Of a DNA stretch of 64,000 nucleotides, positions 18,413-62,099 are shown one piece after another. The stretch comes from Patescibacteria group bacterium (lineage in GTDB: Bacteria; Patescibacteriota; Patescibacteriia; 2-12-FULL-57-11), in contig SCUL01000001.1 in assembly GCA_004297205.1 (NCBI GenBank), positions 93,862 through 157,861 of the forward strand. The letters are read 5' to 3'. The notes beneath the pieces were generated by a model. The model was given only the letters and a program-made list of their open reading frames with translations, did not search any database and was not told where the DNA came from. Both the position numbers and the translations under genes were made by a program. Numbering within the stretch: position 1 is the stretch's first letter; each line of letters begins with the position of its first letter.

Positions 18413-18922
18413 TTAACGCTTCGCGCGGATCGTGGTGACGCCCAACTCGCTGTCGCAGGCGATCACTTCGATGCGGTTGCCGGACGTCTTATTGATGGCG
18501 TAGCGGGTATTTTCGGCCGTGCCCGTGTTCGGATCCATCGGGATCTCCGCCAGATAGGTTTCCACGAGGTCGCTGGTCAGATCGCTGCAGGCCGCCGTCA
18601 GAGATTCGACGGGGATGCCCGCACATGCCGTTGCATTGCAGCCGGTCGTCGCCGTACCGAGCATCTGGTAACTCGTCGCGAGCGCATCGATGTTCTTCGG
18701 GAACGTGTTGCGGTTGTCTTTCATGTACTCAAGCACGGCTTCCACGACGTCGCGCACGTCCTGGCGTCGGACCGCATTGCGCGCTTCCGCGAAGCGGCGC
18801 GCCGGGTCGACGGCGACCAGGATGACCGCGAAGAGAATGCCGATGATGCCGATGATGATGAGCAATTCAATGAGCGTGAACCCCTTCTGCTTCCGTTCCG
18901 TACGTATTTCTCCCCCCTGCAT
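18413..18922 (-). CDS. type IV pilin-like / pseudopilin protein (prepilin-type N-terminal cleavage/methylation domain)
   Basis: KGFTLIELLIIIGIIGILFAVILVAVDP is the prepilin signature G|FTLIEL. Confidence 0.8.
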   Translation of the reverse strand: MQGGEIRTERKQKGFTLIELLIIIGIIGILFAVILVAVDPARRFAEARNAVRRQDVRDVVEAVLEYMKDNRNTFPKNIDALATSYQMLGTATTGCNATACAGIPVESLTAACSDLTSDLVETYLAEIPMDPNTGTAENTRYAINKTSGNRIEVIACDSELGVTTIRAKR

Positions 18923-18978
18923 AGTGAGTCGCTTATATTACTTATGCACACGACCGTATTGCATCCAATATAGCACAC

Positions 18979-19482
18979 TCACCGGGCGGAATAGAGATCG
19001 GTGACCCCCGACTCCGGATCGCATGATCCGACGAGGACGCGCCCGTCGGCAGTGCGGTTGATGAAGTAGTCGGTGTTGGCGTCGGTCCCGGTTTTCGGGT
19101 CTTTCGGAACTTCGGCGATGTAGCCGCCGACCAGCGCGCCGCCGAGATCGAGACAGGAGGGAAGCGTCGTCGTCGCCGTGCAGGTGATGTCGCACCCCGA
19201 GGGAGCGGTGCCGATGACCTGCGAACTCGTGCCCGGGGAGTCGAGACCCGGCGGATCATTGCCGGTGTCGATCGTGAAGGCCAGCACCGCCTCCACGACG
19301 TCGCGCACGTCCTCGCGGCGGTTGGCGTTTCGCGTCTGCGCGAAACGGCCCGCCGGGTCGACGGCGACGAAGATGACGGAAAACAGGACGGCGACGATGC
19401 CGACGACCACGAGAAGCTCGATGAGGACGAATCCCTCGACGCGGCTCGGCGCACATGCTTTGTTGTGTCGCAGGTATCTCAT
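18979..19482 (-). CDS. type IV pilin-like protein, paralog 2
   Basis: EGFVLIELLVVVGIVAVLFSVIFVAVDP. Start placed at the internal Met MRYLRH. It is a tandem paralog of the adjacent pilin. Confidence 0.75.
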   Translation of the reverse strand: MRYLRHNKACAPSRVEGFVLIELLVVVGIVAVLFSVIFVAVDPAGRFAQTRNANRREDVRDVVEAVLAFTIDTGNDPPGLDSPGTSSQVIGTAPSGCDITCTATTTLPSCLDLGGALVGGYIAEVPKDPKTGTDANTDYFINRTADGRVLVGSCDPESGVTDLYSAR

Positions 19483-19517
19483 AGGAAAAATCTCGTTCCG
19501 TGCCGGCCCTGGGCGCC

Positions 19518-20789
19518 TCACGGCGTCATTTCGTCGAAAACGTCGTCGATCGTGGTCACGCCGGCAAGCACCTTGGCGATGCCGTCGTCGAACAAGGTGG
19601 TCATGCCCTTGCGGATGGCTTCCCGGCGGATGATGTCGGCGCCGGCCCGTGCCATGATCAGGTCGCGGATGGCCTCGTCCACCTCCATCGTCTCATAAAT
19701 GCCGACGCGGCCCAACGTGCCGCGGAAGCCGCAGGCGGCGCAGCCGACGCCTTTGGAGAGCTGGACCGTGCGCTTGCCCGCGAAGAGCGTCTTCTTTACG
19801 TCCTTCGGCAGGTTCTCCGGCAGCTGGTCTTCCTGGACGGTGTAGCTTTGGATGCAGTGGGGGCAGACGCGGCGCACCAGCCGCTGTGCGATGATGAGCG
19901 AAATCGTCGAGGCCATCAGGAACGGCGTGACGTTCATGTCCCGCAGGCGCGGAATGCACGCCGGCGCGTCGTTGGCGAGCAGTGCGGACAACACCAGATG
20001 GCCCGTGAGCGCGGCGTCGGCGGCGATGGAGGCGGTTTTCCGGTCGCGGATTTCCCCGACCATGATGACTTCGGGGTCCCGGCGGATGACGGACCGAAGC
20101 CCTTCGGCGAACGTCGGATGCGTTTCTGGGTTGACGTGGAGCTGGGTGACGTCGGCCAGTTGGTATTCGACCGGATCCTCGACGGTAGCGATGCCGGCCC
20201 CGCGTTCGTTCAGAACCTTCAACAGGGCGTAGAGCGTGGTCGTCTTGCCGGAGTCGGAGGGACCGGCGACGACGATCATGCCGAACGGACGGTCGAGGGC
20301 CGAGCGGACTTTTTTCATGTCTTCTTGGGACAATCCGAGGTCTTCGAGCGCATGCCGCCGGGACGTGCCGGCACGCAGCCGCATGATGACCTTTTCGCCT
20401 TCGATGACGGGGGTGGTCGAAACGCGGACGTCGACGCGCTGTTCGCCGGTCTTAATTTTGGCGAGGGTCTTGATGCGGGCGACGATCGGCTCGTGCAGCC
20501 GCTTCGGCAGGGTTACCACGTCGTGGAGCAGGCCGTCGACGCAGAACCGGACCGCCGTCTGCGTCTCCCGCGGCTCGATGTGGACGTCGGAGGCGCGGTT
20601 CTCGCAACCGTATGCCAGGATCGCATCGACGATCTTGACGATCGACGGATCTTCCGGATGGTGAACGCCGCCGACGGACCGGACCTGCGTGTCGATGAAC
20701 TTGGTGAACGCCGTTTCAAAGCCGGCCTCGGGGACCAATCCGAGGCCGAGCACCGTTTTTTTCAACGTGTCAGGAGCGACAAACGACAT
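19518..20789 (-). CDS. type II secretion / type IV pilus assembly ATPase (GspE/PilB family, short form)
   Basis: Walker A GPSDSGKTT, Walker B/Asp-box and His-box motifs, and a C-terminal CPHC...CAAC tetracysteine. Start at the internal Met, with GAGGGAGG upstream. Confidence 0.85.
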   Translation of the reverse strand: MSFVAPDTLKKTVLGLGLVPEAGFETAFTKFIDTQVRSVGGVHHPEDPSIVKIVDAILAYGCENRASDVHIEPRETQTAVRFCVDGLLHDVVTLPKRLHEPIVARIKTLAKIKTGEQRVDVRVSTTPVIEGEKVIMRLRAGTSRRHALEDLGLSQEDMKKVRSALDRPFGMIVVAGPSDSGKTTTLYALLKVLNERGAGIATVEDPVEYQLADVTQLHVNPETHPTFAEGLRSVIRRDPEVIMVGEIRDRKTASIAADAALTGHLVLSALLANDAPACIPRLRDMNVTPFLMASTISLIIAQRLVRRVCPHCIQSYTVQEDQLPENLPKDVKKTLFAGKRTVQLSKGVGCAACGFRGTLGRVGIYETMEVDEAIRDLIMARAGADIIRREAIRKGMTTLFDDGIAKVLAGVTTIDDVFDEMTP

Positions 20790-20815
20790 GTCATTCTTCG
20801 TAGCCTCCCTCGGCA

Positions 20816-21013
20816 TCAATCGTCCTCTTCATCCTCGGCGGATTCGTATTTCAAGGGTTCGATTTGAAAGCGTTCCTTGCATGTCTCCGTGTCGAACTCC
20901 CACACGTCGTCACCGCGGCGCAAAACGACCGGATTGCCGTTGATGGGCGCGGCGCACACCGGACACTTTTTGATCGGCGGTGGCGGAAGCGTCATATGTA
21001 GAAAGTATAGCAA
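20816..21013 (-). CDS. small YHS/TRASH-like metal-binding domain protein (putative)
   Basis: KKCPVCAAPINGNPVVLRRGDDVWEFDTETCKERF resembles the YHS/TRASH pattern (CPVC...yFCS..C...F). It has an acidic C-terminal tail and an apparent TTG/ATG start. Confidence 0.45.
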   Translation of the reverse strand: MLYFLHMTLPPPPIKKCPVCAAPINGNPVVLRRGDDVWEFDTETCKERFQIEPLKYESAEDEEDD

Positions 21014-21028
21014 AAAACGCGCCGGAGC

Positions 21029-22357
21029 TCACGGAGTGTCCCCCGCGGAACGGGATGGTACGGGCACGTCCGGCGGCATCGGGGCGCGTTGCGTCGAAAC
21101 GTACACGTACCCGTCGCGCGTGAGCGTCGGATAAAAGGGAACGCAGTCCTTGCGGAAGGCCGGCGGACCGCAGCCGTCTTTCGTGGAGTATTCCCAACCG
21201 TGCCAGGGGCAGACCAGGTGGCCTGCGGCGTTGAAGCTGCCTTTGTGGAGCGGCCCTTTCTGGTGGGCGCAGAAGTTCGACACCGCCAGGTAACGGTTCG
21301 TCAGCTTGAAAACGGCGATCGGCCGGCCGTCCAGGAAAAACTTCTCGCCGACGCGCGGCTGAAATTCGTCCTCGCGGGCCACGGCGACGTAGCGCACTCC
21401 CCCTTCGCTCAGCTCGCGGCCGAGCTTGATGACGCGTTCGCGCGCACGGCGATCCCCGGACCAGCGCAACACGAGGCCGACCAGATGCGAGCCTGCCACG
21501 AACGCCGCGAGCAGCACGAAGGCCGTCTGCAGCCAGCGGCCCTGGTATTGCACGACGCCGGCCCAGACATGGGCCACGGCCATGGCATAGGCGGCATAGA
21601 CCATGGCGTGCATCTGCTTCCAACCCCAGACGCGGCGGATGATCCGTGCGGTCAGCGGGTTGCGGACGACGAGCAGTCCGTACACGACCGTTCCGGCAGG
21701 AAGCGCCAGCGTCCACCACGGCAAACCCGGCTGCCGGGAGAGCACCCACCAGGCGATCGCGGCGTACCCCAGCACCATCATGAGGTGCGCGATCTGCCAG
21801 GTCCGCTCTTTGACGTGCTTCTGCCAGCGGTCGTTCGACGTCACCGCCAGGAAGAACAGGAAGTACGTGGCGGTGAAGCCGAAAAAGGTGAAAACCGCGC
21901 CGAACGCTTCCGTGAGCTGGCCGTTGTAGTAACTGCGCACCACGGTCGTGGCATGCAGCTCCGCCAGCAGGAACACGGTGACGCCCAGGTGGCGGCGGTG
22001 CGTGACGAGCCGCATGACCCACTTTTGCCACCACGACCACGGCCCGATCAAGAGAACGGCGTGGAACAGCAAGAAGGCGTCAATGGCCGCCGTACGCAGC
22101 ACGAGCGTCACCGGATCGAGGTCGGGAAAGGCAAAGTGCGCGACGATGAAGCTGACGGCGAGCACCGCGGCCAGAGCGACGTCGAACCAGGCGCGCAGGG
22201 CTGCCGAAACCGCGGCGACGATCAGGAAAAAAGCGACGACCGCGGCGAGATAGAAAACATCGAAGGCGCCGGCCACGCCCCCCAGGGCGATGAATCCTGC
22301 CGCCGCGATCAAGATGCCGCGGATGCGCCAACGCTCGCGGAGGTTCACGGCGGCCAT
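21029..22357 (-). CDS. polytopic membrane protein with a C-terminal Rieske [2Fe-2S] domain
   Basis: About 330 aa of TM helices (W-rich), then CAHQKGPLHKG...LVCPWHGWEY, which gives the Rieske CxH...CxxH ligands. Confidence 0.7.
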   Translation of the reverse strand: MAAVNLRERWRIRGILIAAAGFIALGGVAGAFDVFYLAAVVAFFLIVAAVSAALRAWFDVALAAVLAVSFIVAHFAFPDLDPVTLVLRTAAIDAFLLFHAVLLIGPWSWWQKWVMRLVTHRRHLGVTVFLLAELHATTVVRSYYNGQLTEAFGAVFTFFGFTATYFLFFLAVTSNDRWQKHVKERTWQIAHLMMVLGYAAIAWWVLSRQPGLPWWTLALPAGTVVYGLLVVRNPLTARIIRRVWGWKQMHAMVYAAYAMAVAHVWAGVVQYQGRWLQTAFVLLAAFVAGSHLVGLVLRWSGDRRARERVIKLGRELSEGGVRYVAVAREDEFQPRVGEKFFLDGRPIAVFKLTNRYLAVSNFCAHQKGPLHKGSFNAAGHLVCPWHGWEYSTKDGCGPPAFRKDCVPFYPTLTRDGYVYVSTQRAPMPPDVPVPSRSAGDTP

Positions 22358-22360
22358 AGG

Positions 22361-22906
22361 TCAGTTGAGGGATGCGGCGGTGAACACCACCTTGAACGGC
22401 ACGCAGTAGACGACGACGCTGCGCCAGTCTTCGTCCGCTTTATCGTCCGGAATCTCGTAGACCTGCCCGCCGGACGGCGACTTGAGCGCTCCCAGATCGA
22501 GGTCGCCCATGCTGTGCAGGTCGGTACTCGAGCCGGGATCCGGATGGCCGGCCAGAAAGACGTGCAACCGCGGGCCGGCATCGGTCTTGAACGCGGCATC
22601 GAGCACGAGATACGTCTTGCCGTCCTTGCGGGTGATCGTCGCCGTCCCCTGCCCCGCATGAGCCTTCTCCCGGAAGGTGCCGGAGCGCATCTTTTCTTCA
22701 CGCTTCAGCATGAGGGCGAAATCGTCCTCCATGGCCATCTCGATCTCCGGCAGGTACTGCGGCGGGTTCACGCGCATTTCCTCATCCATGGCACGCTGCA
22801 ACTGTTCCGGCGTCATGTTCGTGGTGTCCGGATACTCGTTGGTGGAGACGGAACAACCCGCCCCGAGCAGGGTGAACATGGAAAGCACGACGATCAGGCG
22901 TTTCAT
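22361..22906 (-). CDS. lipoprotein with a DM13-like domain (putative extracytoplasmic electron-transfer module)
   Basis: Signal peptide with lipobox LLGAGCS. The C-terminal half KDGKTYLVLDAAFKTDAGPRLHVFLAG...VVYCVPFKVVF resembles the DM13 pattern (F.t..GPdL.VyL). It overlaps the Dus gene stop by 4 nt. Confidence 0.55.
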   Translation of the reverse strand: MKRLIVVLSMFTLLGAGCSVSTNEYPDTTNMTPEQLQRAMDEEMRVNPPQYLPEIEMAMEDDFALMLKREEKMRSGTFREKAHAGQGTATITRKDGKTYLVLDAAFKTDAGPRLHVFLAGHPDPGSSTDLHSMGDLDLGALKSPSGGQVYEIPDDKADEDWRSVVVYCVPFKVVFTAASLN

Positions 22907-23959: not shown

Positions 23960-25450
23960 CTACTGTTTCACCCCGGCAATCGCTGCCTGAGCGCGGTAGG
24001 CCGAGACGGTCATCCGGCGCCAGTCAATCTGTCCCGACACTCCAGGCCTGACAGCCTTCAGCCGCTCGCAAGAAAACCTGCTGGTAAACGCCTCGTTGGG
24101 TGACGCCGTTGTGAATGGAGATACCTCGGCACAGGCAAACTCGGCCATGGTCGGAACCGCATCAGCGGACAAATGAAGCATGTATGGAACGTCCAACCTG
24201 TCTGTTTTTCCGCTTAAGATGCGTTCGGCGTTGAATCGCACGACGAACCCCTCAACGTTGAACAACAAGAGCGCCGAGACGACGACGAGCACGCCCGGAA
24301 AGGCGTACTTGGCCAGGTCGTGGTACTTCACCTTGGCCAATGCACCGACAAAGCAGGAGACGAGTACGGCCGCGATGATACCGATCGTCACCAGCGCCCA
24401 GTAGCGCGACACGGAAAGCCCGTACGCGTCGATGTAGAGCAGCAGGCGGTTGATCGCAGAAACGATCACCACGCCGGTCTGCGCGATGAGGAGCAGGGAC
24501 AGGCCCCGTGTCCCCCACTGCCGCAGTTCGGTTTGCCGGTAGATCGCCCAGATGACGCCGAAGACGATGCCGGCGACGGCCAAGAGCTGGAAGAATCCTT
24601 GCCGCGCGTACTCGGCGTAGGTCAGCCCCTGGCTTTCCACGAAGGCCTGGCCGCCGAAGAACGTGACCGTTTGGAACGCCAGGAACACCACGAACAGCGC
24701 GTTCAACAACCCAAGAAAGGTCATGACCACGGTGCGGTCGAGCGAGGCGTCGTGCGCGGCGGTCGAGGGTTTGCGCCCTTCGATGGCGCGGGTCAGCAGC
24801 AGCCAGCCGCCGCCCAGGAAGAACAGCAGGGCGACCGCATCACGGCACAGGCGGAACAGCGTCCGTGCCAGGTCCACGTCATCGAACACTCCCTCGATCC
24901 CCTTCCGGAACAGCGGATCAGCGCCGGCGAACAGCGCGCCGATGACGATCAAGAACGGAATCGCCAGAACGACGCCGCCGAGGACCGGCGTCCAGTCGCG
25001 CTTGCCGCTGCGCGTCGTCAGCATTTCCGCCGTTCCGCGCACCGGGAACAGGACTTCCGGCACGATGCGCCGCGGCCAGAGCGATTGCACCTCGTCGAAC
25101 CGCAGGCGCGGCACGGTCAACCAGTACGAGAAAAAGGTCAGTGACACGAACGTGATCAGGAAGCCGAGCGCGGCCACCACGTCGCTGGCATACAACGTTT
25201 CCGCCGCCAGCGTGAAGGCCACCGGAACCAGGAACAGGAATGCCCAGGTGTTCAGCGGCTTCGAGGACATGACGGCCAGCACCAGCATGCCGGCGATGAG
25301 AACCGCCGCGAACAGCACGAAACCGAATCCGTGCCCGGATGGAATCAACAAAAAGTGAAAGGCCAGCGTCGCGGCGAATGCCGTGAGCATGGTCGCGACG
25401 ACCAGATGAGCCTTGTGGTGCGGGTGCGGCGCGGACAGGTCAAAAGCCAT
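23960..25450 (-). CDS. hypothetical polytopic membrane protein (496 aa, more than 10 TM helices)
   Basis: Hydrophobic periodicity throughout. No family recognised with confidence. Confidence 0.55.
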   Translation of the reverse strand: MAFDLSAPHPHHKAHLVVATMLTAFAATLAFHFLLIPSGHGFGFVLFAAVLIAGMLVLAVMSSKPLNTWAFLFLVPVAFTLAAETLYASDVVAALGFLITFVSLTFFSYWLTVPRLRFDEVQSLWPRRIVPEVLFPVRGTAEMLTTRSGKRDWTPVLGGVVLAIPFLIVIGALFAGADPLFRKGIEGVFDDVDLARTLFRLCRDAVALLFFLGGGWLLLTRAIEGRKPSTAAHDASLDRTVVMTFLGLLNALFVVFLAFQTVTFFGGQAFVESQGLTYAEYARQGFFQLLAVAGIVFGVIWAIYRQTELRQWGTRGLSLLLIAQTGVVIVSAINRLLLYIDAYGLSVSRYWALVTIGIIAAVLVSCFVGALAKVKYHDLAKYAFPGVLVVVSALLLFNVEGFVVRFNAERILSGKTDRLDVPYMLHLSADAVPTMAEFACAEVSPFTTASPNEAFTSRFSCERLKAVRPGVSGQIDWRRMTVSAYRAQAAIAGVKQ

Positions 25451-25462
25451 ATGCGATGGACG

Positions 25463-26815
25463 TTACACGATCATGGACGGCGCTTCCAGTTCGGACGGCC
25501 GTTTGAAAATCACGTCTTCGATGCGGTAGGTGCCATGGGTCGGCGCTTCGATAAAGCCGTTCCAGGCCATGCGGGCCAGGCCGCCGGACTGCAACCAGTC
25601 GAACAACCATTCGTCCGTGTACCGCTCGTCGTTCTGGGCCACGCCGCCGCCGACCTGCTGCAGCCACAGCCGGTTGAAATCTTCCTGCGATCCCACCGAC
25701 GGCGCCAGGATGAGCGGGATGCCGAGACCCGTATAAAAGGACAGTTCGGACGGCTTGGTCCACAGCAGGTCCGTGGCGCGCAGCGTCTGGCTGAACTCGC
25801 GAAAGTAGGCGGGGCGGTCTTCGGCGAGCATCACGTTGATGCTCTTGCCGAGTTCCTTGCCGAGTCCGAGCGTTTTCACTTCGTCCCGGAAGAACCGCGC
25901 CACCTCGGCACGCACGCCGGCCACCAGGTTGATCTGCACGTCGTGGTGCTTGAGACGGCGGCGCAACGACTTGCAGATGTTGATACCCAGCTGCTTTTGC
26001 GCGCCGGCGCCGCCCACGCAGAAGGTGATGGTCAGCGGGTGGTCGGCTTTGGCCGGGCAGTACTTATTACCCAAAAAGAGGTCCAAGGTTTCCGCGTAGC
26101 GCATGCGGAAGGCGCCCGACGGGTCCAGGTTGCACAAACGGTTGCCCATGTCGCGCTTGATGATCGACGACCCCGGCCCGCCAATCAGCTCTTTCGGCAT
26201 CGGAAAACCGGTCAGGAAAATGTTCTTTTCCGGGACGCCGTACAGCTTCAGGCGCTCGACGACGCGGCCGTTCGACGCGAAGTACTTGATGCGGCTCTTC
26301 TTGGGGTCCTTGGCCACCCAGGCGCGGCTCATGTCCGCGTCGCAGACAACCATGTAAATGTCGTTCGGGTAGTCGTAGATTTCCGCGGCGAAGGCGGGAA
26401 TGAAAAACGTGGACACGAGCGGTCGGTCCGGATGTTCGCGCAGCCGCTCCACCAGGTCGCGTCCCAGTCCCCGCTTTTCGATCAGCGAGTAGGTCTGGCG
26501 CACCTGCAGGCTCGGCTCCGACAAATCGCGCCGCGGATAGAACTGCGGGATGCGCTGCAGCGAGTCGAGCACCTCGAAGACGTACGGGCCGATGACCGGC
26601 AGGGGTTTCAGGCGGGAAATCGTCTCGTAGACGGATTTGCCCTCATGCCACATGCGCTTGTCCTCGCGCGGGATGCCCGGATAGTTGTTGGCGATGATGT
26701 AGCCCTGCGGTCCGGCCAGGTCGCGCAGCGCATACGCGGCGCGCTCGTGGCCGTAGCCCATGTCCACGGCCACGACCCAGGCGCGCTTGTTTTTCGGCGC
26801 GGCGTGCGAATGCAT
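25463..26815 (-). CDS. hypothetical protein, possibly a GT-B-fold glycosyltransferase (MurG / MGDG-synthase-like N-terminal G-x-G-H motif)
   Basis: KRAWVVAVDMGYGHERAAYAL resembles the GT28 N-terminal motif. Assignment is tentative. Confidence 0.45.
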   Translation of the reverse strand: MHSHAAPKNKRAWVVAVDMGYGHERAAYALRDLAGPQGYIIANNYPGIPREDKRMWHEGKSVYETISRLKPLPVIGPYVFEVLDSLQRIPQFYPRRDLSEPSLQVRQTYSLIEKRGLGRDLVERLREHPDRPLVSTFFIPAFAAEIYDYPNDIYMVVCDADMSRAWVAKDPKKSRIKYFASNGRVVERLKLYGVPEKNIFLTGFPMPKELIGGPGSSIIKRDMGNRLCNLDPSGAFRMRYAETLDLFLGNKYCPAKADHPLTITFCVGGAGAQKQLGINICKSLRRRLKHHDVQINLVAGVRAEVARFFRDEVKTLGLGKELGKSINVMLAEDRPAYFREFSQTLRATDLLWTKPSELSFYTGLGIPLILAPSVGSQEDFNRLWLQQVGGGVAQNDERYTDEWLFDWLQSGGLARMAWNGFIEAPTHGTYRIEDVIFKRPSELEAPSMIV

Positions 26816-38584: not shown

Positions 38585-40510
38585 TCAAACGGAAACTGCA
38601 GCCAAGGCGCCCTCGGCCATGGCGTCCGTCACCCGTCGCGGCTGTTTGGCGTCGCCCACGACCTGCAGCGAGCGCACCTTCCCCCGGAGTTCCGCGGCGA
38701 CGCCGTCATTGGGCGTGGCGCCCAGGCAAAGGACGACGGTATCCGCGGGCAACGTTCTTGGACCATGCGGACCCTCGACCGACACCGTCTGCGGGCCGAC
38801 GGCCATGACCTTGGTGTCCGTCAGGATGGCGACGTGGTGTTTTTTCAAACGTCCGAGCAGCAGGGCCCGGTCGTCGACCGGCCCGTCGGCGGCGACGGCG
38901 CCGCCGGCTTCGACGATCGTCACGCGATGCCCGTCGGCGGCGAGCGCCTCGGCCGTCTGCGCGCCCATGCAGCCGCCGCCCGCCACGACGACGCGGCCGG
39001 TCGCGTTCACCCAGCCTTCCAGCAGGTCGCGCGCAATGACCACGTTGGTCCGACCGACGCCCGGGATGTTCGGCCGGTTTGGCACGGACCCGATGGCGAT
39101 GATCGCGGCGTCGTACTGCCCCGCGCGGACGGCGCCGGGAACGAACTCGGCGTTCAGCCGGACCGTGATCGGCAGGCGCTTCACGTCCCGGACCAACGCA
39201 TCCCGCAATTCCGACCAGCCTTGGCGGTGCGGAGCCACCGCGGCGGCGGCCAGCTGCCCGCCGAGTTGTCCGTGCTTCTCGTACAACGTCACTGTGTGTC
39301 CGAGTTCCGCGGCCGTGCGCGCGGCGGACAATCCGGCCGGTCCCCCGCCGACCACGAGCACGCGTCTCTTCGTTTTGGGCTTCTTGGCGAATTGCCGTTC
39401 CCGCCCGTTGGCCGGATTCACGGTGCACCAGACGTCCTGCTGCGCGAACAACCGGCTGATGCAGCCCTGGTTGCAGGCGATGCAGGGCATGATTTCGCCG
39501 AGCCGCCCTTCGCGCACCTTGTTCGGCCACTCGGGGTCGGCGAGCAACGTTCGTCCGACGGCGATGAAATCAGCCTTCTTCTCTTTGATCGCGCGCTCTC
39601 CCGTCTCGGCGGACCGAATTTTTGCAACAGCAATGACAGGTATCTTCACGGCCTTTTTGACGCCCGCCGCGAGATGCAGCAGCGGGGCATCCGGCACGGC
39701 CATGGGCGGGATCATCATGCCGCGCGCGTAGGAGGCGTAGTTGCCGGCGGAAATGTGGAGCGCGTCGGCGCCGAGGTCCTGCAGCCGCTGGGCGATGCGG
39801 ACGGTGTCGGACAAACGGATGCCGCCCGCAACGAGCTCGTCGCCCGACAAGCGGACCGCGACCGGATAGCGTCCGCCGACGGCGCCGCGCACCGCGGCCA
39901 TGACCTCCGCCAGGAACCGGATGCGGTTGTCGAAACCGCCGCCGTAGCCGTCGGTGCGCCGGTTCGAAAACGGCGAGAGGAACTGCGTGATGAGGTAACC
40001 GTGGGCGCCGTGGACCTCCACGAAGTCCAGTCCGGCCTTTTTGGCGCGCAGCGCCGCGGCCCCGTAGGCGCGCACCAGCGACGTGATTTCCGCCGCGGTC
40101 AGCTCGTGCGGAATCTCGTTGACCGTGGGGTCCGGCAGCGGCGAGGGCGCTACCGGCTGCCTTCCCGTGGTCTTCGCGGACGTCTGCCGGCCGGCGTGGT
40201 AGAGCTGGATGCCGATCTTGGCGCCGTGGCGATGCGCCGCCGCGGCGAGTTTGCGCAGTCCCGGCACCATCGCATCGCTGTGGATGCCGAGCTCGTTGAC
40301 GAATCCCTTGCCGTCGGGACGGATGAAGCTCGCCTCCAAGATCATCATGCCGATGCCGCCGCGCGCCACCCGTTCGATGTGGTCGACGTAGCGCGGCGTG
40401 ACGCGACCGCGCGCGTCCGCATAGTTGCGGACCATGGGCGGCATGACGAGACGATTTTTGAGCGTCATCGTGCCGATGCGTCCTTGGCTGAACAGCGTGT
40501 GGAAGGACAT
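38585..40510 (-). CDS. NADH:flavin oxidoreductase (Old Yellow Enzyme domain) fused to an FAD/NAD(P)-binding domain (2,4-dienoyl-CoA reductase-like)
   Basis: N-terminal TIM-barrel OYE motifs (GRIGTMTLKNRLVMPPM, HGAHGYLITQFLSP), a Cys cluster CIACNQGC, and a C-terminal VLVVGGGPAGLSAA Rossmann fold. Confidence 0.8.
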   Translation of the reverse strand: MSFHTLFSQGRIGTMTLKNRLVMPPMVRNYADARGRVTPRYVDHIERVARGGIGMMILEASFIRPDGKGFVNELGIHSDAMVPGLRKLAAAAHRHGAKIGIQLYHAGRQTSAKTTGRQPVAPSPLPDPTVNEIPHELTAAEITSLVRAYGAAALRAKKAGLDFVEVHGAHGYLITQFLSPFSNRRTDGYGGGFDNRIRFLAEVMAAVRGAVGGRYPVAVRLSGDELVAGGIRLSDTVRIAQRLQDLGADALHISAGNYASYARGMMIPPMAVPDAPLLHLAAGVKKAVKIPVIAVAKIRSAETGERAIKEKKADFIAVGRTLLADPEWPNKVREGRLGEIMPCIACNQGCISRLFAQQDVWCTVNPANGRERQFAKKPKTKRRVLVVGGGPAGLSAARTAAELGHTVTLYEKHGQLGGQLAAAAVAPHRQGWSELRDALVRDVKRLPITVRLNAEFVPGAVRAGQYDAAIIAIGSVPNRPNIPGVGRTNVVIARDLLEGWVNATGRVVVAGGGCMGAQTAEALAADGHRVTIVEAGGAVAADGPVDDRALLLGRLKKHHVAILTDTKVMAVGPQTVSVEGPHGPRTLPADTVVLCLGATPNDGVAAELRGKVRSLQVVGDAKQPRRVTDAMAEGALAAVSV

Positions 40511-40605
40511 AGCTCCTGTGGTTTGCCCGCACTCTACCATGCTTGGCATTTCCCACGAAGAATGCCAGGATGCCGCCGCATCTTCACGGGGAAGATGCGG
40601 AGGGA

Positions 40606-44277: not shown

Positions 44278-44766
44278 CTATTCCACGGTCACCGCCGTGA
44301 CCATGCCCATGGCGCGGTGCACGCCCACGGAGCAATACGCCTCGAACGTTCCCGTCTTGTCCGGGGTGAATTCGACCGTCTCCGATTCGCCGGCCTTCAG
44401 CTTCTTCGTGGCCACGCCGAACTCGTCGAGCCGGAAGTCGTGCATGCCCTCGTTGTTCACGAAGGTCAGGCGGACCTTCTGCCCGCTCTTCAACGCCAGC
44501 GTCTTGGTGGAGAAGGCGAAGTTATCGCCGACAATGACCACTTCGCGCACGTCCTCGGCGTCCACGGCATCCGACGGCGGCGCCGTCTCCACCGGTGCGG
44601 CGGCGGCGCCCCCCGTGTTCGTCCCCTGGCCGGACCGCGGCAAGGCGCTCCCAATGTCGGCCTGCGCAGCCTCCGACGCGGGCGCCGGCGTCCGGGTCAG
44701 ATAAAATCCGCCGGCGGCGAAGACGGCGAAAACGAGAACAACGGCCGCGGCAATCTTGATGGACAT
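44278..44766 (-). CDS. cupredoxin-like (type 1 copper, plastocyanin/amicyanin-like) protein with an N-terminal TM/signal anchor
   Basis: Candidate copper ligands H(DF)...CSVGVHRAMGM, which is a C-x-x-H-x-x-x-M spacing. Start at the internal Met MSIKIAAAVVLVF. Confidence 0.6.
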   Translation of the reverse strand: MSIKIAAAVVLVFAVFAAGGFYLTRTPAPASEAAQADIGSALPRSGQGTNTGGAAAAPVETAPPSDAVDAEDVREVVIVGDNFAFSTKTLALKSGQKVRLTFVNNEGMHDFRLDEFGVATKKLKAGESETVEFTPDKTGTFEAYCSVGVHRAMGMVTAVTVE

Positions 44767-44792
44767 AGCCGGAGAGAAAAATGACGGCCCTA

Positions 44793-44809
44793 TACTACAA
44801 ATTGTAGTA
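44793..44809. promoter_or_regulatory. perfect inverted repeat TACTACAA-a-TTGTAGTA in an AT-rich divergent intergenic region. Candidate operator.
   Basis: 8-bp arms. The core TACA-N3-TGTA resembles CopY/BlaI-family boxes (TACAnnTGTA). It lies next to a TATACT -10-like hexamer. Confidence 0.4.
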
Positions 44810-44910
44810 AACACGCACAACGCACGGTCTGTGGATAGCTTGGCGCGTGGACGACATATGTACACGAAGCATCGGGGGCGGTTACACTGCTCCTCCACGC
44901 ACTATCTCCT

Positions 44911-46593
44911 ATGGCAAAAAAATCCAGCACCACCGCCCTGACTCCCGAACAACGCGACGCGCAGGACGCCCGTTACGCCCAGGGACACACGTACGACGTG
45001 GTGATCATCGGCACGGGCAGCTCGGCGCTGACCGCCGGTGCGCTTCTGGCCCACGCCGGTAAAAAGGTCTGCCTGCTGGAGGCGCATGACATTCCCGGCG
45101 GCTACGCCCAGACGTTCAAGGCCGGCGGCTTCGAGTTCTGCGCCCAGGTCCACTACATCTGGGGCTGCGCGCCCGGCGGCCGCATCTACGAATTCCTGAA
45201 ACGCATCGGTCTCGAGAACGACATCACCTTCGAGCTGTTTGATCCGGAGGGCTACGACCACATGGTCCTGCCGGACGGCAGGCGCGTGAAAATTCCCTAC
45301 GGCTGGGACAAGCTCGTGGAGAACGTCTGTGCGGCCTATCCCGACCAGCGCGTCCCGATGGAAAAGTTCGTCGGCGTGCTCCGGACGCTGCGCGACGAGT
45401 TCCGACATTTGCCGGCGCGCAAAGCCAAGTGGTGGGAGTACCTGCGCGCCTGGCGCGTCCGGCATATCATCAAATATCGGAAAGCCTCGCTCCAGGACCT
45501 GTTCGATGCGTGCAGGCTTTCCCGCGAAGCGCAGGCCGTGCTCGCCGCCAACGCCGGCGATTTCATGCTGCCGCCGGAGAAGCTCTCGCTCTTCATGTAC
45601 ATGGCGCTGTTCGGCGGCTACAACACCGGCGCCTACTCCCCCACCAAGCACTTCAAGTATTACGTCGAACGGTTGGCCCGCTTCATCACGGACCATCCGG
45701 GCTGCCACATCTATTACGAAACCGAAGTCACCGCGATCACCACCAACGGCGACCGCGTCAGCTCCGTCGGCACCAAAGACGGCAAAACGTTCACGGCCGA
45801 GACGTACGTCTGCAACGGCGACCCGCAGAAAATGGCCAAGATCATCGGCTGGGAAAAATTCCCGGCGGCCGAGCAGAAAAAACTGTCCTACCAGTATTCC
45901 GAGGCCGGCGTGGTCGTCTATCTCGGGCTCAAGGATATCGACCTGCGGAAGTTCGGCTTCGGCTCCTACAACATCTGGCATCTCGAAGGCTGGGACATGA
46001 ACCAGATGTGGCGCGAGATGGGCGCCTGCGACTTTTCCAAACCCTGGGTGTTCCTCTCCACGCCGACCTTGCACACCAGCGAAGGCGGAACCACGCCCGG
46101 ACCCGGCTACCAGATTCTGGAGCTGGCGTCGTTCGCGAACTATGCGCCGTTCAAGGATGCGCAGGACAAGGGGTATGCCGAATACTTCAAACTCAAACAG
46201 CGCGTCTCGGAACGGATGATCGACATCGCCGAAAAACGCTACATCCCGAACCTGCGCAAGCACATCGTCGTCAAACAGGTCGGCACGTCGACGACGAACG
46301 AGGATTTCGTGCTGGCGCCGAACGGCAACGCCTACGGCGCCGACATGATCCCCTCCCAGGTAACGCTGTCCCGCCTCAAGGCAACGACGCCCTTCAAAAA
46401 TTTCTGGTGGTGCAACGCCTCGAGCGGTTGGGCCGGCATGTTCGGCACGGTCTCGACCGGCATGAACCTGTACATGGACCTGACCGGCGACCGCTTCTTC
46501 GGCACGACTAAAGGCCCGACGGACGAGGAACTTATCGCGGCGCTGCCTCAGCCAGAGGCTGATCCGCCTCCGGCGGAGAAAACCGCGCGCTGA
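44911..46593 (+). CDS. FAD-dependent oxidoreductase, phytoene desaturase (CrtI)-like family
   Basis: YDVVIIGTGSSALTAGALLAHAGKKVCLLEAHDIPGGY is the dinucleotide-binding motif. About 560 aa. Confidence 0.7.
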   Translation: MAKKSSTTALTPEQRDAQDARYAQGHTYDVVIIGTGSSALTAGALLAHAGKKVCLLEAHDIPGGYAQTFKAGGFEFCAQVHYIWGCAPGGRIYEFLKRIGLENDITFELFDPEGYDHMVLPDGRRVKIPYGWDKLVENVCAAYPDQRVPMEKFVGVLRTLRDEFRHLPARKAKWWEYLRAWRVRHIIKYRKASLQDLFDACRLSREAQAVLAANAGDFMLPPEKLSLFMYMALFGGYNTGAYSPTKHFKYYVERLARFITDHPGCHIYYETEVTAITTNGDRVSSVGTKDGKTFTAETYVCNGDPQKMAKIIGWEKFPAAEQKKLSYQYSEAGVVVYLGLKDIDLRKFGFGSYNIWHLEGWDMNQMWREMGACDFSKPWVFLSTPTLHTSEGGTTPGPGYQILELASFANYAPFKDAQDKGYAEYFKLKQRVSERMIDIAEKRYIPNLRKHIVVKQVGTSTTNEDFVLAPNGNAYGADMIPSQVTLSRLKATTPFKNFWWCNASSGWAGMFGTVSTGMNLYMDLTGDRFFGTTKGPTDEELIAALPQPEADPPPAEKTAR

Positions 46594-56832: not shown

Positions 56833-57345
56833 TTACAGGAGCCGCGCGGTCGAAAGCTTGATGGAGAGTGCCTGGGCACTGACAAGGTATTTCTTCGCCA
56901 GCGAAGGAATGTCCGGCGTGGCCGCGAGATCCTTCTTTAGCATCTTCGCGGGCATCAGCAATTCGCCAGCAAAGAGGTTCGCCTCCTTTTCGGCGTGCGA
57001 GGCCGGACCGTCTTCGCTACAGCTACCGTGCCTCATGAGCATGTGTCCGATTTCATGCGCCAGTGTAAAGCGGCGGCGACACCCTGGGTGGTTCTCGTTG
57101 AACACAATCGTGACGAATTCATCGTCCGCCTTTTTACACACGACCAGAAGTCCAGAGACCTTTTCGGTGAACTTCTGGCTGCCGACCACGTCTAGGTTTG
57201 TTTTGGACTGAAGATGCTCAATGACTTGGCGCAGGGACACGGGTGCGGTCGAGATGCGCGCATGCTTCAGAAGATTTTGAGCTGTGACTTCAGCAAACTT
57301 CTTCCGAGGCCCGAGATCGACCCCGCCCTCATCCATTCTTTGCAT
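56833..57345 (-). CDS. ImmA/IrrE-family metallopeptidase (anti-repressor protease)
   Basis: HEIGH motif in RFTLAHEIGHMLMRHG. Start at the internal Met overlaps the XRE gene's 3' end, as in immR-immA pairs. Confidence 0.75.
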   Translation of the reverse strand: MQRMDEGGVDLGPRKKFAEVTAQNLLKHARISTAPVSLRQVIEHLQSKTNLDVVGSQKFTEKVSGLLVVCKKADDEFVTIVFNENHPGCRRRFTLAHEIGHMLMRHGSCSEDGPASHAEKEANLFAGELLMPAKMLKKDLAATPDIPSLAKKYLVSAQALSIKLSTARLL

Positions 57346-57679
57346 TCCCTTTTCGCTTAGCCATTTCAATAATCCGCTCGATCGCTTCCCGATCTTGTTT
57401 GGAAATATTCTTCTCCGCCCTAAGCGCAACTATGACGTCCATCTTTGTGTCTTTGCCCAGCAAAGAATCCACGTCGATCTTAAGGATGCTTGCGATGCGA
57501 CCCAGATTCTCCGCCGTCACCCCGCGCTGGTCGTTTTCTATGAGGGAGATGGCGGTAGCGGTTTCGAAATCCAGCGCCTTCGCAAGGTCAAGCTGTGAAT
57601 AACCTGCGGCCTCCCGTGCAGCCCGTATGCGCTGACCAATTGTTTTCGCCTTATTCTCATCGGTTTTCATACGTTTCAT
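57329..57679 (-). CDS. XRE-family helix-turn-helix transcriptional regulator (ImmR/Cro-C1-like)
   Basis: IGQRIRAAREAAGYSQLDLAKALDFETATAISLIENDQRGVTAENLGRIASIL is an HTH_XRE domain. Confidence 0.8.
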   Translation of the reverse strand: MKRMKTDENKAKTIGQRIRAAREAAGYSQLDLAKALDFETATAISLIENDQRGVTAENLGRIASILKIDVDSLLGKDTKMDVIVALRAEKNISKQDREAIERIIEMAKRKGNAKNG

Positions 57680-57707
57680 GTTGGCATGATAGCATCATCG
57701 TTTCGAT

Positions 57708-57755
57708 TTGACAAGGGTATTTCGTATTGATATACTTCTATTGTCATAATGACAA
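57708..57755 (+). promoter_or_regulatory. consensus-like promoter TTGACA-17nt-TATACT followed by a perfect palindrome TTGTCAT-a-ATGACAA (candidate repressor operator). A divergent promoter for the XRE gene overlaps it on the other strand.
   Basis: gatTTGACAagggtatttcgtattgaTATACTtctaTTGTCATAATGACAAtatcc lies 25 nt upstream of the operon's first ATG. In reverse it reads TTGTCA-17-TATCAT before the XRE ATG. Confidence 0.55.
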
Positions 57756-57778
57756 TATCCCCCGTAGGGGTCACCCAC

Positions 57779-58051
57779 ATGAACACCTACCTCGTGTCGT
57801 ACGACCTTCGGAAGCCGGGAAAGGATTACGCCCCGCTGCACGCGTTCCTCAAAAAGTATTCGGCATACGCGAAGCCCCTTGAGTCGCTGTGGTTCGTGAA
57901 GAGCCCGCTGACCGCCGAGGGCGTCCGCAACGAGATCATGACCCAAATCGACTCCAACGACCGCCTCTTCGTCGTGAACGTCACCAAGGCGGGTGCGGCT
58001 TGGACCGGCGTGGACAACGCAAATTCTAACTGGATTAAGGCTAACATGTAA
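57779..58051 (+). CDS. hypothetical small protein with a Cas2/VapD-like beta-alpha-beta-alpha-beta sequence pattern (putative ferredoxin-fold nuclease-like)
   Basis: MNTYLVSYDLRKPGKDYAPLHAFLKKYSAYAKPLESLWFVKSPLTAEGVRNEIMTQIDSNDRLFVVNV. Compare the Cas2 pattern LVxYDI..kRraKv.k.L..yG.RvQnSVFec.l......l...i..ii...DsvriY.l. There is no cas1 or CRISPR array in the window. Confidence 0.45.
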   Translation: MNTYLVSYDLRKPGKDYAPLHAFLKKYSAYAKPLESLWFVKSPLTAEGVRNEIMTQIDSNDRLFVVNVTKAGAAWTGVDNANSNWIKANM

Positions 58052-58056
58052 CCCCT

Positions 58057-58278
58057 ATGGCAAACCAGCACATAGTGCAGCGCGAGGAAGGTTGGGCGGT
58101 CCGGCGCGAGAAGGCCGGACGCGATACCGCCGTCCTCGACACCCAAGCGGAGGCAATCAAAGAGGCGAAGCGCATCGCGGACAACCAGGGCGGCGAGGTG
58201 CTCATCCACGGGCGTGACGGCAAGATCCGCAACAAGGATACGCACAGCAAGGTCGACCATCACCCACCTAAAGGCTAA
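58057..58278 (+). CDS. DUF2188-family small protein
   Basis: HIVQREEGWAVRREKAGRDTAVLDTQAEAIKEAKRIADNQGGEVLIHGRDGKIRNKD matches the DUF2188 pattern. Confidence 0.6.
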   Translation: MANQHIVQREEGWAVRREKAGRDTAVLDTQAEAIKEAKRIADNQGGEVLIHGRDGKIRNKDTHSKVDHHPPKG

Positions 58279-58283
58279 CCCCC

Positions 58284-58502
58284 ATGAACATCGGCGAAGT
58301 TAAGAACAAGGCAGAGTGCCCCGCCTGCAAGGCTGCGGTCGAGTTCACCCTGGTGGAGATCGCTGCGGAATCGTCCGTGACATGTGGCGGCTGCGGGGCA
58401 TCAATCAAGCTCACCGACAAGGACGGCGGCGCAAAGAAGCTCATCAAGGAGATGAACGATATCACCTCCCAATTCCCCAAGAAGATCACCCTCAAGTTCT
58501 AA
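58284..58502 (+). CDS. small zinc-ribbon protein (CPAC...CGGC)
   Basis: 72 aa with four Cys in two CxxC pairs. The 5-nt spacing from the previous gene suggests it is in an operon. Confidence 0.5.
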   Translation: MNIGEVKNKAECPACKAAVEFTLVEIAAESSVTCGGCGASIKLTDKDGGAKKLIKEMNDITSQFPKKITLKF

Positions 58503-58526
58503 TCCATCACCGACCCAAACGACCGT

Positions 58527-58835
58527 ATGATTTACGACTTCAAGGGTCCGTACACCTTCTCTGAAAAGGTCATATCGGACTGGGACAGCGACTCGATCGG
58601 CGTCTACTACTGCGGATACAAAAATGCGGATGGAAAGCTCGCTATCTGCTACATCGGCAGGGCAGTCGCCGAAGGCGGTATGCGCGGACGCCTCCTCGAG
58701 CACCTCGGTGAGGACAAGTGGTCCGATGTTACTCACTTTGGCTTCCATCGTTGCGACACCGCCACGGAGGCCAAGAACCACGAGATTGCCGAAATCGTTC
58801 TCTACAAACCCAAATACAACACGGTCGGCAAGTGA
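58527..58835 (+). CDS. stand-alone GIY-YIG nuclease domain protein
   Basis: GVYYCGYKNADGKLAICYIGRA...RLLEH...NHEIAEI carries the GIY-YIG motif, the Arg and the Glu. It has no additional DNA-binding domain. Confidence 0.65.
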   Translation: MIYDFKGPYTFSEKVISDWDSDSIGVYYCGYKNADGKLAICYIGRAVAEGGMRGRLLEHLGEDKWSDVTHFGFHRCDTATEAKNHEIAEIVLYKPKYNTVGK

Positions 58836-58937
58836 GTGTGGTGCCGCACCTCGCCGAGAAGTACACGAGGTAGCTCGCGGAATAAAAAACGTAACGCCCT
58901 CGAACATGCTGAGGGCGCGGTAGTGATCCATAATCGT

Positions 58938-59014
58938 GCTTTGCTTATCGGGCTAAAAACTTATCTACTTGTTCGATAAGCCGAGCCCATGTAACTAGGT
59001 GTGACCTTTGTTTA
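58938..59014. promoter_or_regulatory. AT-rich region upstream of the methyltransferase gene with an inverted repeat GCTTATCG...CGATAAGC and a palindrome TTTGTT-tat-AACAAA. Candidate promoter/operator.
   Basis: Seen directly in the sequence. It is preceded by a terminator-like hairpin CGCCCTC-gaacatgct-GAGGGCG at ~58895. Confidence 0.35.
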
Positions 59015-59030
59015 TAACAAATAGATAGTT

Positions 59031-59810
59031 ATGGGAAATTCCTATACAATTCCAATGTTAATCGCTATGCCAGAAGCAGTAGCTACAAAACGACGGATCC
59101 AGGGAGGGGTCGCTACGACCAACCTAGTCTTGTCAGCCCATGTAACGGGAAATGCCGATGTCTTCCCGACAGTTATTGATTTGCATGTGGCTCCGGGATC
59201 AAAGGTGGCTGACGTCACTTACGGAAAGGGTGTTTTTTGGAAAAAGGTTCCGCCGGGAAAGTACCAACTTTTCCCGAGCGATCTGAAAACCGGAATTGAT
59301 TGCACAAAATTACCCTACGAAAACGAGAGTCTTGATTGCGTCGTTCTTGATCCCCCCTACATGGAGGGGCTATTCCGCGGATCAAAGAATCAGCTGGCCG
59401 GATCTGGTACCCACGCAGCCTTCCGCGAAAACTATTCCAACGGTCAAGCATCCTCAATTGATGGGCCGAAATGGCACGACGCTGTTCTCGACCTGTACTT
59501 CCGTGCTGGCATCGAGGCCAGGAGGGTTCTAAGAAATGGCGGTACGCTCATCGTCAAATGCCAAGATGAAGTGAGCGCAAACAGGCAGAGACTTACTCAC
59601 GTTGAGATCATCAACGAGTACGTTGGGTATGGATACTACGCGAAAGATATTTTCGTAGTCGTACGGACGAACAGGCCGGTCATGAGCCGACTAAAGAAGC
59701 AGGTTCACGCTCGAAAAAACCATTCTTACTTCCTCGTGTTCGTGAAGGTCCCTGTCAACAAAAATCCGCGTCTTTATCGACCGCGAAGCAATTCGTCGAG
59801 CAACGGATAG
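59031..59810 (+). CDS. DNA methyltransferase (N6-adenine or N4-cytosine class, DPPY motif). Probable modification subunit of a type II R-M system.
   Basis: [10 protein letters not shown] (motif IV) followed by LAGSGT (motif I-like), which is a beta-class order. The gene is low-GC. Confidence 0.75.
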
Positions 59811-60352
59811 GGATCGGTGGTAAAGGGAGGCTCAGGAGGCCAAGAGACGTTGACTGTAGTGGCCAGCAGGTGTTGCTGCTGCTCGGGGGTATACTTTTTG
59901 GATTTAGATCTCGGAAGGTCTTTGTTTTTTGCAAAAATGAACCTCCAACCCTCCCCGAACGAGAAGAGATTCACCGCCAAGATATCGAACTCGCCCACAA
60001 GCAGGCACGTGGTTTCGACAACTGACCCGTCAAACAGCTTGACTGGCCGCCGGTCGCTTGCGTCAACTTGGGCTTTTCCGCACATCACCTTGTCAACACA
60101 ACGGATACTATTCGTTTGAAGCGACTTCACTTCGATGAAGAACTCTCTGCCACCGTAAGTAACGGAAATATCGCCTTTCTTAGTGCGGTCGTGATCATCA
60201 TACTTTTTTACATTTGTCACTTCCTTACGGCCATCGAACCACGTCTTCTTGGCCTTGGTCTCGCCGAGATAACCAAGAAGCATCCCGCGCAGGCTGGGAT
60301 TCGTGTCTATTACTTCGGTGAGATCATCCGCTGTGATCTCCCATCTCTGCAA
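59774..60352 (-). CDS. putative restriction endonuclease (PD-(D/E)xK-like motif), convergent with and overlapping the methyltransferase gene
   Basis: [17 protein letters not shown] gives D...E-x-K. The call rests on position and motif only, with no recognisable family. Confidence 0.4.
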
Positions 60353-62025: not shown

Positions 62026-62099
62026 TGGCAGGGGCGGTAGGAATCGAACCCACGCAAGGGGTTTTGGAGACCCCTGTACTACCATTATACGACGCCCCC
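62026..62099 (-). tRNA. tRNA-Trp (anticodon CCA), with the 3' CCA encoded
   Basis: The reverse complement GGGGGCGTCGTATAATGGTAGTACAGGGGTCTCCAAAACCCCTTGCGTGGGTTCGATTCCTACCGCCCCTGCCA folds as a cloverleaf. The anticodon loop is CTCCAAA and the T-loop is GGTTCGATTCC. Confidence 0.85.

Follow-up and report, generated by a model that had tools for sequence, protein, structure and literature searches.

A DM13 lipoprotein and a ferric-reductase/Rieske fusion encoded side by side: a putative MsrPQ-like transmembrane electron-transfer module in Patescibacteria

What can a Rieske [2Fe-2S] domain fused to an integral membrane protein, and a DM13-domain lipoprotein encoded directly beside it, do together? 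The question is raised by two adjacent genes in a stretch of 64,000 nucleotides (nt) from contig SCUL01000001.1 of a Patescibacteria group bacterium; this whole stretch is called the window below. The original prediction for the pair, made from the DNA letters alone, was an uncharacterised redox module at the cell surface. We favor, with moderate confidence, a different arrangement: a two-gene, MsrPQ-like transmembrane module that would pass electrons outward, from the Rieske cluster through a flavin and an outer heme b to the DM13 lipoprotein.

The two genes are open reading frames (ORFs) of 442 and 181 amino acids (aa) that coincide exactly with the region singled out by that prediction. Their third-position GC content (GC3) is 0.86 and 0.84, respectively, a GC3-rich coding signature in a window of 64% GC. 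Only 3 nt separate them, and the start of the DM13 gene overlaps the stop of the upstream Dus (dihydrouridine synthase) gene as ATGA. The neighbors of the fusion gene are Dus and DM13 on one side and a YHS-like gene and a T2SSE ATPase gene on the other. NCBI EPO33_00655, from a Patescibacteria group bacterium, has exactly the sequence of the 442-aa protein. The ferric-reductase domain is abbreviated FRD and transmembrane helices are abbreviated TM in the following list of features.

21029..22357, minus strand: gene for the 442-aa FRD-Rieske fusion (ORF; AlphaFold2 predicted local distance difference test, pLDDT, 92.8; predicted template-modelling score, pTM, 0.90)
22361..22906, minus strand: gene for the 181-aa DM13 lipoprotein (ORF; Pfam DM13 E=5.6e-16)
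22853..22906, minus strand: signal peptide and lipobox, aa 1-18, MKRLIVVLSMFTLLGAGC (read from the sequence)
22367..22678, minus strand: DM13 domain, aa 77-180 (Pfam; alignments of 11 and 90 DM13 proteins)
21464..22189, minus strand: assigned MsrQ/STEAP-type ferric-reductase core, aa 57-298 (homolog Pfam matches, profile search, hhalign)
21641..21808, minus strand: two-helix insertion, aa 184-239, between FRD TM4 and TM5 (alignment of long and short forms, AlphaFold2 helices)
21083..21418, minus strand: Rieske-type [2Fe-2S] ferredoxin domain, aa 314-425, predicted to be cytoplasmic (Pfam, Foldseek, topology)

The C-terminal Rieske domain was recognized by Pfam (PF00355, E=1.1e-13, 51.3 bits against a cutoff of 20.3, aa 324-395). 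Its ligands lie in the pattern C363-A-H365...C383-P-W-H386 (CAH-x17-CPWH), and C363, H365, C383 and H386 are invariant in 53 homologs. The motifs, read from the sequence as CAHQKGP and CPWHGW, lack the disulfide cysteines of the bc1 type. By the known properties of these classes, their absence points to a low-potential ferredoxin type with an electron-carrier role. Sequence searches placed the domain closest to the ferredoxins of oxygenase systems, and the best structural matches of the Rieske part in Foldseek were the ferredoxins CarAc, BphA3, TodB and T4moC (TM-score ~0.83). The fold and the CxH-x17-CxxH motif are shared with these proteins and with NirD. Unlike the oxygenase ferredoxins, however, the window domain is tethered to a membrane heme protein, and no oxygenase is encoded nearby.

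The N-terminal region is polytopic and rich in tryptophan, as first described, with 17 Trp in 310 aa (5.5%) and 10 predicted TM helices in ~300 aa. It need not be left as a membrane domain of unknown kind: the Pfam matches of its homologs, together with profile matches to STEAP2 and MsrQ, point to a ferric-reductase heme domain of the MsrQ/STEAP type. The family PF01794 (ferric-reductase transmembrane component) was matched by 34 of the 53 aligned homologs, with a best E of 2.3e-15. A profile built from the membrane region alone reached one solved structure, human STEAP2 (PDB 7tai, E=1.7e-5), with the R-R/K-x-L-G...H motif aligned. Compared with E. coli MsrQ, the same profile gave an hhalign probability of 94.9% (E=4.7e-8) in an alignment that stops at residue 184. 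When the whole FRD-Rieske model was submitted to Foldseek, the top 50 matches were all Rieske proteins; the membrane domain was identified by the profile searches instead.

Relative to the ~350-aa short forms of the family, the alignment gives the window protein two extra N-terminal helices (aa 6-53) and a pair of helices inserted after core TM4, ahead of TM5, the insertion being specific to the long form of Patescibacteria and DPANN. AlphaFold2, run on the 53-sequence alignment, gave a model in which ten TM helices, the last of them (TM10) long, are followed by a C-terminal domain rich in beta structure. On this profile evidence the membrane domain is best described as a divergent MsrQ-type flavocytochrome b core of the MsrQ/YedZ-STEAP branch, with a putative 6-TM core and four lineage-specific helices.

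The distribution of charge orients the protein. Lys and Arg number 13 in the loops assigned inside, with 7 more in the 25-residue segment that follows TM10, and 2 in the outside loops. In this orientation R121/R122 lie on the inner side of the membrane and H135/H263 on the outer side, which is also the arrangement of MsrQ, STEAP and NOX (NADPH oxidase) proteins. In the characterised FRDs the C-terminus and the electron-input module are all cytoplasmic, and the Rieske domain is likewise predicted to be cytoplasmic here. Some Rieske proteins, of the dual Sec-Tat kind, are exported by Tat after the final TM helix. The loop ahead of TM10 in the window protein is VQYQGRW, with no twin-arginine motif, and therefore the dual Sec-Tat route does not apply; the even TM count and a C-terminus placed inside by charge bias also led us to set it aside. 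The module thus spans the membrane and is not confined to the cell surface. The original prediction was to fall if a cytoplasmic Rieske domain coincided with a missing DM13 match: the former is now predicted, but the DM13 hidden Markov model (HMM) matched. The domain identities and the topology of the module are well supported.

The candidate cofactor sites are among the most conserved positions. R121, R122, H123, H135, S174, W246, K247, H250 and H263 are invariant in the 53 sequences, and the spacings R121-H135 (14) and H250-H263 (13) equal those of NOX2 H101/H115 and H209/H222. According to a survey of the superfamily, the YedZ/STEAP branch carries Arg in place of the first canonical His (Zhang et al. 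2013, PLoS One 8:e58126). The same signature is found here: R121 is invariant, stands 14 residues ahead of H135 and falls opposite R77 of MsrQ and the Arg of STEAP2 in the alignments. For MsrQ, a 2025 study assigned H91 and H164 to the single outer heme and R77, R78, L131, S135, W147 and H151 to the flavin mononucleotide (FMN) pocket, with FMN lost in R77A and R78A (PMC12525009). The MsrQ/window pairs are R77/R121, R78/R122, H91/H135, L131/L170, S135/S174, W147/W246, H151/H250 and H164/H263, and every window counterpart except L170 is invariant across the family alignments. H135 was aligned to MsrQ H91 by hhalign; the TM5 pairs, including H263/H164, lie beyond the end of that alignment at residue 184 and were matched by eye from the motifs. 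The outer-heme His pattern, one His in core TM3 and one in core TM5, is present at the sequence level. From these correspondences we infer one heme b at the outer face, with H135 and H263 as putative ligands, and one flavin at the inner face. Membership in the NADPH oxidase/FRE group (NOX-type FRD) was rejected: Arg occupies the first His position, the C-terminal domain is a Rieske domain, and there were no FAD/NAD domain matches.

The second gene encodes a single-domain protein by Pfam, and its DM13 domain scored 59.5 bits against a cutoff of 25 (PF10517). No DOMON domain was seen in the protein or in any examined locus. Its N-terminus reads as a signal peptide and lipobox, an extracytoplasmic signal, in line with the lipoprotein assignment made earlier. 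The LLGAGC lipobox, preceded by a basic n-region and a hydrophobic h-region, is common to the bacterial orthologs and presumably conforms to the PROSITE-type lipobox pattern. In the archaeal ortholog LTSC takes its place, and DM13 proteins further removed carry a TM anchor at the N-terminus. In the alignments of 11 and 90 sequences G111-P112, Y150 and C168 are invariant, the Cys in all 90, and H83, H115, D137 and K142 are nearly so.

In an AlphaFold2 model on the 90 DM13 sequences (pLDDT 90.4) the lipoprotein tether is disordered and leads into two helices (aa 33-68) and an 8-strand beta-sandwich; strand alternation would place the conserved Cys and His residues at one pole of the sandwich. 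Searches of PDB sequences with the single DM13 sequence and with the 90-sequence profile returned nothing meaningful and no solved structure. The best Foldseek matches of the model were all Cu,Zn superoxide dismutases, weak ones (E>=0.015, TM-score 0.3-0.47) that serve as a lead only. This weak but consistent likeness leaves open a role in superoxide handling beside a NOX-related heme domain. A role of DM13 in electron transfer was predicted in 2007; in the literature we found no report of a DM13 cofactor or partner.

Do the two genes belong together? The order DM13 then FRD-Rieske recurs in seven contigs from at least four lineages, archaea included, which upholds the idea of a module. In each of them (the window and loci L009, L010, L001, L015, L091 and L092) the two genes share a strand, DM13 immediately precedes FRD-Rieske, and the gap measures -4 to 31 nt. 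L009 and L010 carry relatives of the window at 81% and 66% identity, L001 is a Woesearchaeota contig, and L015 is an Uhrbacteria contig. The adjacency was also put to a test from the DM13 side: the closest DM13 relatives with usable contigs, P0070 (51% identity) and P0071 (43%), were both found directly upstream of a long-form FRD-Rieske gene (L091 and L092). Among DM13 proteins, the linked ones are most closely related to one another. More distant DM13 proteins are not next to FRD-Rieske genes and occur in unrelated contexts, and DM13 was found in 0 of ~70 short-form loci.

The FRD-Rieske family itself is wider than this cassette. The original prediction regarded the architecture as unusual, a view that no longer holds: in Zhang et al. 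(2013) FRD plus Rieske is already bacterial architecture M4, the Rieske domain being counted among the electron-transfer agents, and of 185,579 species genomes 350 contain relatives. The accessible text of that survey catalogues M4 only, giving no topology, cofactor mapping, partner, 10-TM Patescibacteria/DPANN form or DM13. At E<=1e-30 the membrane-domain profile retrieved 199 clusters (50% identity). A few long-form clusters apparently carry no Rieske domain; P0190 and P0195, long-form 10-TM FRD proteins of ~310-320 aa, are of this kind, and they suggest that the Rieske module can be supplied in trans.

The short forms constitute a sister clade in Acidobacteriota, Hyphomonadaceae, Planctomycetota, Saprospiraceae and others, and are annotated by Joint Genome Institute (JGI) pipelines as a Rieske-ferredoxin/YedZ fusion. 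They lie in a conserved, unannotated cluster in the order short-chain dehydrogenase/reductase (SDR), ~80-aa 2-TM protein, ~60-aa 1-TM protein, FRD-Rieske, ~250-aa membrane-anchored protein. Examples from loci L019-L088 are these.

L019:5250-7811, short-form cluster
L021:5568-7736, short-form cluster
L007:5694-7906, short-form cluster

The ~250-aa protein has no Pfam family, is marked by the motif SKCYLG..PG.GK.HR.CA..C..GG.PP and is encoded directly downstream of the short-form FRD-Rieske gene in 66 loci. It is also found fused to FRD-Rieske in ~600-aa proteins (P0049 alignment, 38% identity, E=7e-37). These fusions show, for the sister clade, that the FRD-Rieske family works with an extracytoplasmic, membrane-tethered partner, and by analogy they support the same reading for DM13.

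A working order for the module can be proposed on this basis. A cytoplasmic reductase or soluble ferredoxin would first reduce the Rieske cluster, which would hand electrons to a flavin at the inner membrane face (R121/R122/S174/W246/H250). The flavin would reduce the single heme b on the outer side (H135/H263), and the heme would pass electrons, presumably by direct contact, to the lipid-anchored DM13 protein encoded immediately upstream. The conserved His/His/Cys pole of DM13 would finally deliver them to an extracytoplasmic substrate, which might be an oxidised protein, a metal ion or O2.

The closest known system is E. coli MsrPQ (YedYZ). Its membrane core is homologous, with counterparts of the heme ligands and FMN pocket, and its logic is alike: electrons come from a source in the cytoplasm, cross the membrane through an FRD and go to an extracytoplasmic partner whose gene is adjacent. 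The parts at either end differ, as the partner is the molybdoenzyme MsrP where the window has a DM13 lipoprotein, and the input is the soluble flavin reductase Fre where the window has a fused Rieske domain. The window protein also differs from MsrQ in its four extra TM helices, its extra invariant H123 and a host without a quinone-based respiratory chain. No MsrP-type gene occurs at the locus, and we use MsrPQ-like for the manner of working only, having rejected membership in MsrPQ.

Several observations weigh against this electron-transfer reading. The window FRD-Rieske protein itself has no PF01794 match at E<=0.01 and no Pfam match in its first 320 residues, which is probably explained by the two-helix insertion, and its assignment as an FRD is transitive or profile-based. 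The extra invariant H123 raises the possibility of a second heme in place of the flavin. No electron donor was identified in the window and no candidate is adjacent to the module. Patescibacteria and DPANN are reported to lack electron-transport chains ancestrally. Heme synthesis is usually absent in Patescibacteria, which raises the question of where the heme for FRD-Rieske would come from.

The genomic case has its own weak points. Gene packing is tight across the genome, and adjacency in the window by itself says little. Among 13 long-form loci ascertained through FRD-Rieske, eight have no DM13 within 6 kb, and two syntenic pairs (window and L006, L092 and L094) differ only by the DM13 gene. 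In a mirror-tree comparison of DM13 and FRD-Rieske identities the correlation is driven by three close relatives; once these are excluded, Spearman rho is 0.14 and non-significant. Nor did a sensitive DM13 HMM turn up any overlooked copy in the DM13-less loci. Since the gene is missing from such long-form loci, syntenic relatives among them, DM13 is a recurrent but optional partner of long-form FRD-Rieske, not an obligatory one.

Candidate donors do occur in other long-form loci. Soluble Rieske ferredoxin genes are convergent downstream of the long forms in L001 and L091, a Rieske gene and a Pyr_redox_2 reductase gene lie near the long form in L002, and an FMN reductase is encoded in L092 and L094. 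On the opposite strand, ~2.5 kb upstream of the short-form FRD-Rieske gene in ~20 Hyphomonadaceae-type loci, and in L021:3464-3769 and L027:3469-3768, lies a soluble Rieske ferredoxin gene whose product may be the electron donor of those short forms. A 654-aa protein encoded in the window (38585-40549) joins an Old-Yellow-Enzyme-type NADH:flavin oxidoreductase to a Pyr_redox_2 domain and resembles 2,4-dienoyl-CoA reductase or NADH oxidase. Few other cytoplasmic redox enzymes are encoded in the window, and this flavoprotein is a conceivable electron source.

The alternative that survives best, though we think it unlikely, is that FRD-Rieske is a stand-alone STEAP/FRE-like metalloreductase that reduces extracellular Fe(III)/Cu(II) for uptake, with DM13, the YHS-like protein and the cupredoxin as metal-handling accessories. 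STEAP2 is the closest solved structure by sequence, and the eight DM13-less loci make it evident that FRD-Rieske is able to act without an adjacent DM13. STEAPs share the R-K/R-x-L-G...H motif and have one outer heme and an inner flavin, but they differ in their N-terminal F420-type NADPH domain, in direct metal-ion reduction and in a Gln where the window family has H250. The two accessory candidates are at these positions in the window.

20816..20995, minus strand: 59-aa Cys-rich YHS/TRASH-like protein (sub-threshold Pfam; membership in the module uncertain)
44278..44766, minus strand: membrane-anchored cupredoxin (coordinates assume an internal-Met start, inferred from reading the translation)

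The 59-aa ORF, counted from its ATG, is directly downstream of the FRD-Rieske gene, and its orthologs hold the same position in L006 and L010 only, which makes three loci with a YHS/TRASH-like gene at that spot. The matches fall under the Pfam thresholds, however (E=0.004, 17.5 bits against a cutoff of 30.3 in the window; 24.5 bits for the L006 ortholog), and the protein has no signal peptide. The cupredoxin ORF (44278..44898; Cupredoxin_1 E=3e-9, Copper-bind E=1.3e-7) is 21 kb from the module. It shares 34% identity with a cupredoxin of L092 whose gene is convergent with the DM13-FRD-Rieske cassette, L092 being the sole other contig with a related cupredoxin beside the cassette. The links suggested between these two proteins and the module are weak: both genes exist, but the YHS-like gene is linked in the closest clade only and the cupredoxin is distant. 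A role for the window cupredoxin as downstream acceptor is possible but unproven. Against the metalloreductase, none of the loci examined has a metal transporter gene next to it, and the sister-clade fusion to an extracytoplasmic protein favors transfer from protein to protein.

A second alternative, which we rate as slightly more unlikely still, is that DM13 is no redox partner at all but a structural, adhesion or signalling surface lipoprotein that merely shares the operon. The precedent is SaeP of Staphylococcus aureus, a surface DM13 lipoprotein paired with SaeQ, a membrane protein of the DoxX family (putative oxidoreductase). The likeness ends there: SaeQ is not an FRD, and the characterised role of the pair is modulation of the SaeS kinase, which is regulatory and not electron transfer. 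The presence or absence of DM13 between syntenic relatives, the unrelated contexts of DM13 proteins in general, and the lack of any demonstrated DM13 cofactor or solved structure all fit this explanation. It accounts less well for an order and near-zero spacing that recur in at least four divergent lineages and two domains of life, for linked DM13 proteins that are mutual closest relatives, and for an invariant Cys and near-invariant His that strand alternation would gather at one pole. Finally, an outward-facing Rieske domain in a cell-surface redox module with DM13 is very improbable despite the Tat precedent, given ten TM helices, a strongly positive N-terminus and post-TM10 segment, no RR before TM10, and the cytoplasmic input module of every characterised FRD.

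The outward transfer of electrons to DM13 thus remains the reading we favor, and it has counterparts in eukaryotes. Plant cytochrome b561-DM13-DOMON (At5g54830), named as a fusion, combines DM13 outside the membrane with a transmembrane b-heme carrier, and the insect proteins Knickkopf and Skeletor combine DM13 with DOMON; the conserved Cys is found in these eukaryotic DM13 proteins too. The window DM13 differs from these eukaryotic proteins in being a separate lipoprotein, in having no DOMON and in having an FRD, not a cytochrome b561, as its membrane partner. In the literature we found no description of DM13 beside FRD or Rieske, of the 10-TM form or of a Patescibacteria/DPANN Rieske/ferric reductase cassette, and no experimental work on FRD-Rieske proteins.

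Other features of these loci and of the window were noted in passing. A DUF4153 membrane protein and a DUF6938 protein, with RlmN and Dus, are conserved upstream neighbors in the window (23960-26815) and around its 48%-identity relative (L006:1965-4922). Just upstream of the DM13/FRD-Rieske position in L092 (4074-4568) and L094 (3962-4920) are genes for ~160-aa cytoplasmic proteins with an N-terminal CxxC and no Pfam match, preceded in both by an FMN reductase gene and an MGMT-like gene. The module is followed directly, on its own strand, by a type IV pilus-like set (18413-20819) with a T2SSE/PilB-type ATPase (19518-20819) and two pseudopilin-like genes, one at 18979-19521 and one at 18413-18922 with an N-terminal methylation motif. 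The cupredoxin gene (minus strand) is divergently paired with a gene for a 560-aa amine-oxidase or phytoene-desaturase-like flavoprotein (44911-46593, plus strand), the pair spanning 44278-46593. The stretch 56833-60352 is probably a mobile or foreign island: its GC content is 0.53-0.58 against ~0.64 elsewhere, several of its small ORFs have no Pfam match, and it holds an IrrE/ImmA-like Peptidase_M78 gene (56833-57429, minus strand). A promoter and terminator scan of the window was uninformative, with 0 promoters and 7 terminator-like sites against 9.1 expected, and the tRNA and Rfam scans of the window found a tRNA-Trp at 62026-62099 only.

A two-gene cassette of DM13 and an MsrQ-type heme protein is a tractable system for testing the 2007 prediction of electron transfer by DM13. 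It is tempting to go further, and we do so tentatively, since we consider it a doubtful extension: DM13 may represent a hitherto undescribed class of redox protein outside the cytoplasm, built as a Greek-key beta-sandwich that bears a His/His/Cys site at one pole, and the cassette a minimal, quinone-independent means of electron export shared horizontally between Patescibacteria and DPANN. If this were true, the cassette could serve in detoxification of O2 and reactive oxygen species, in repair of oxidised surface proteins or in reduction of metals at the cell or host interface. A shared transmembrane electron conduit is noteworthy in Patescibacteria and DPANN because these groups are reported to lack electron-transport chains, and it would bear on how episymbionts cope with oxidants or interact with their hosts.

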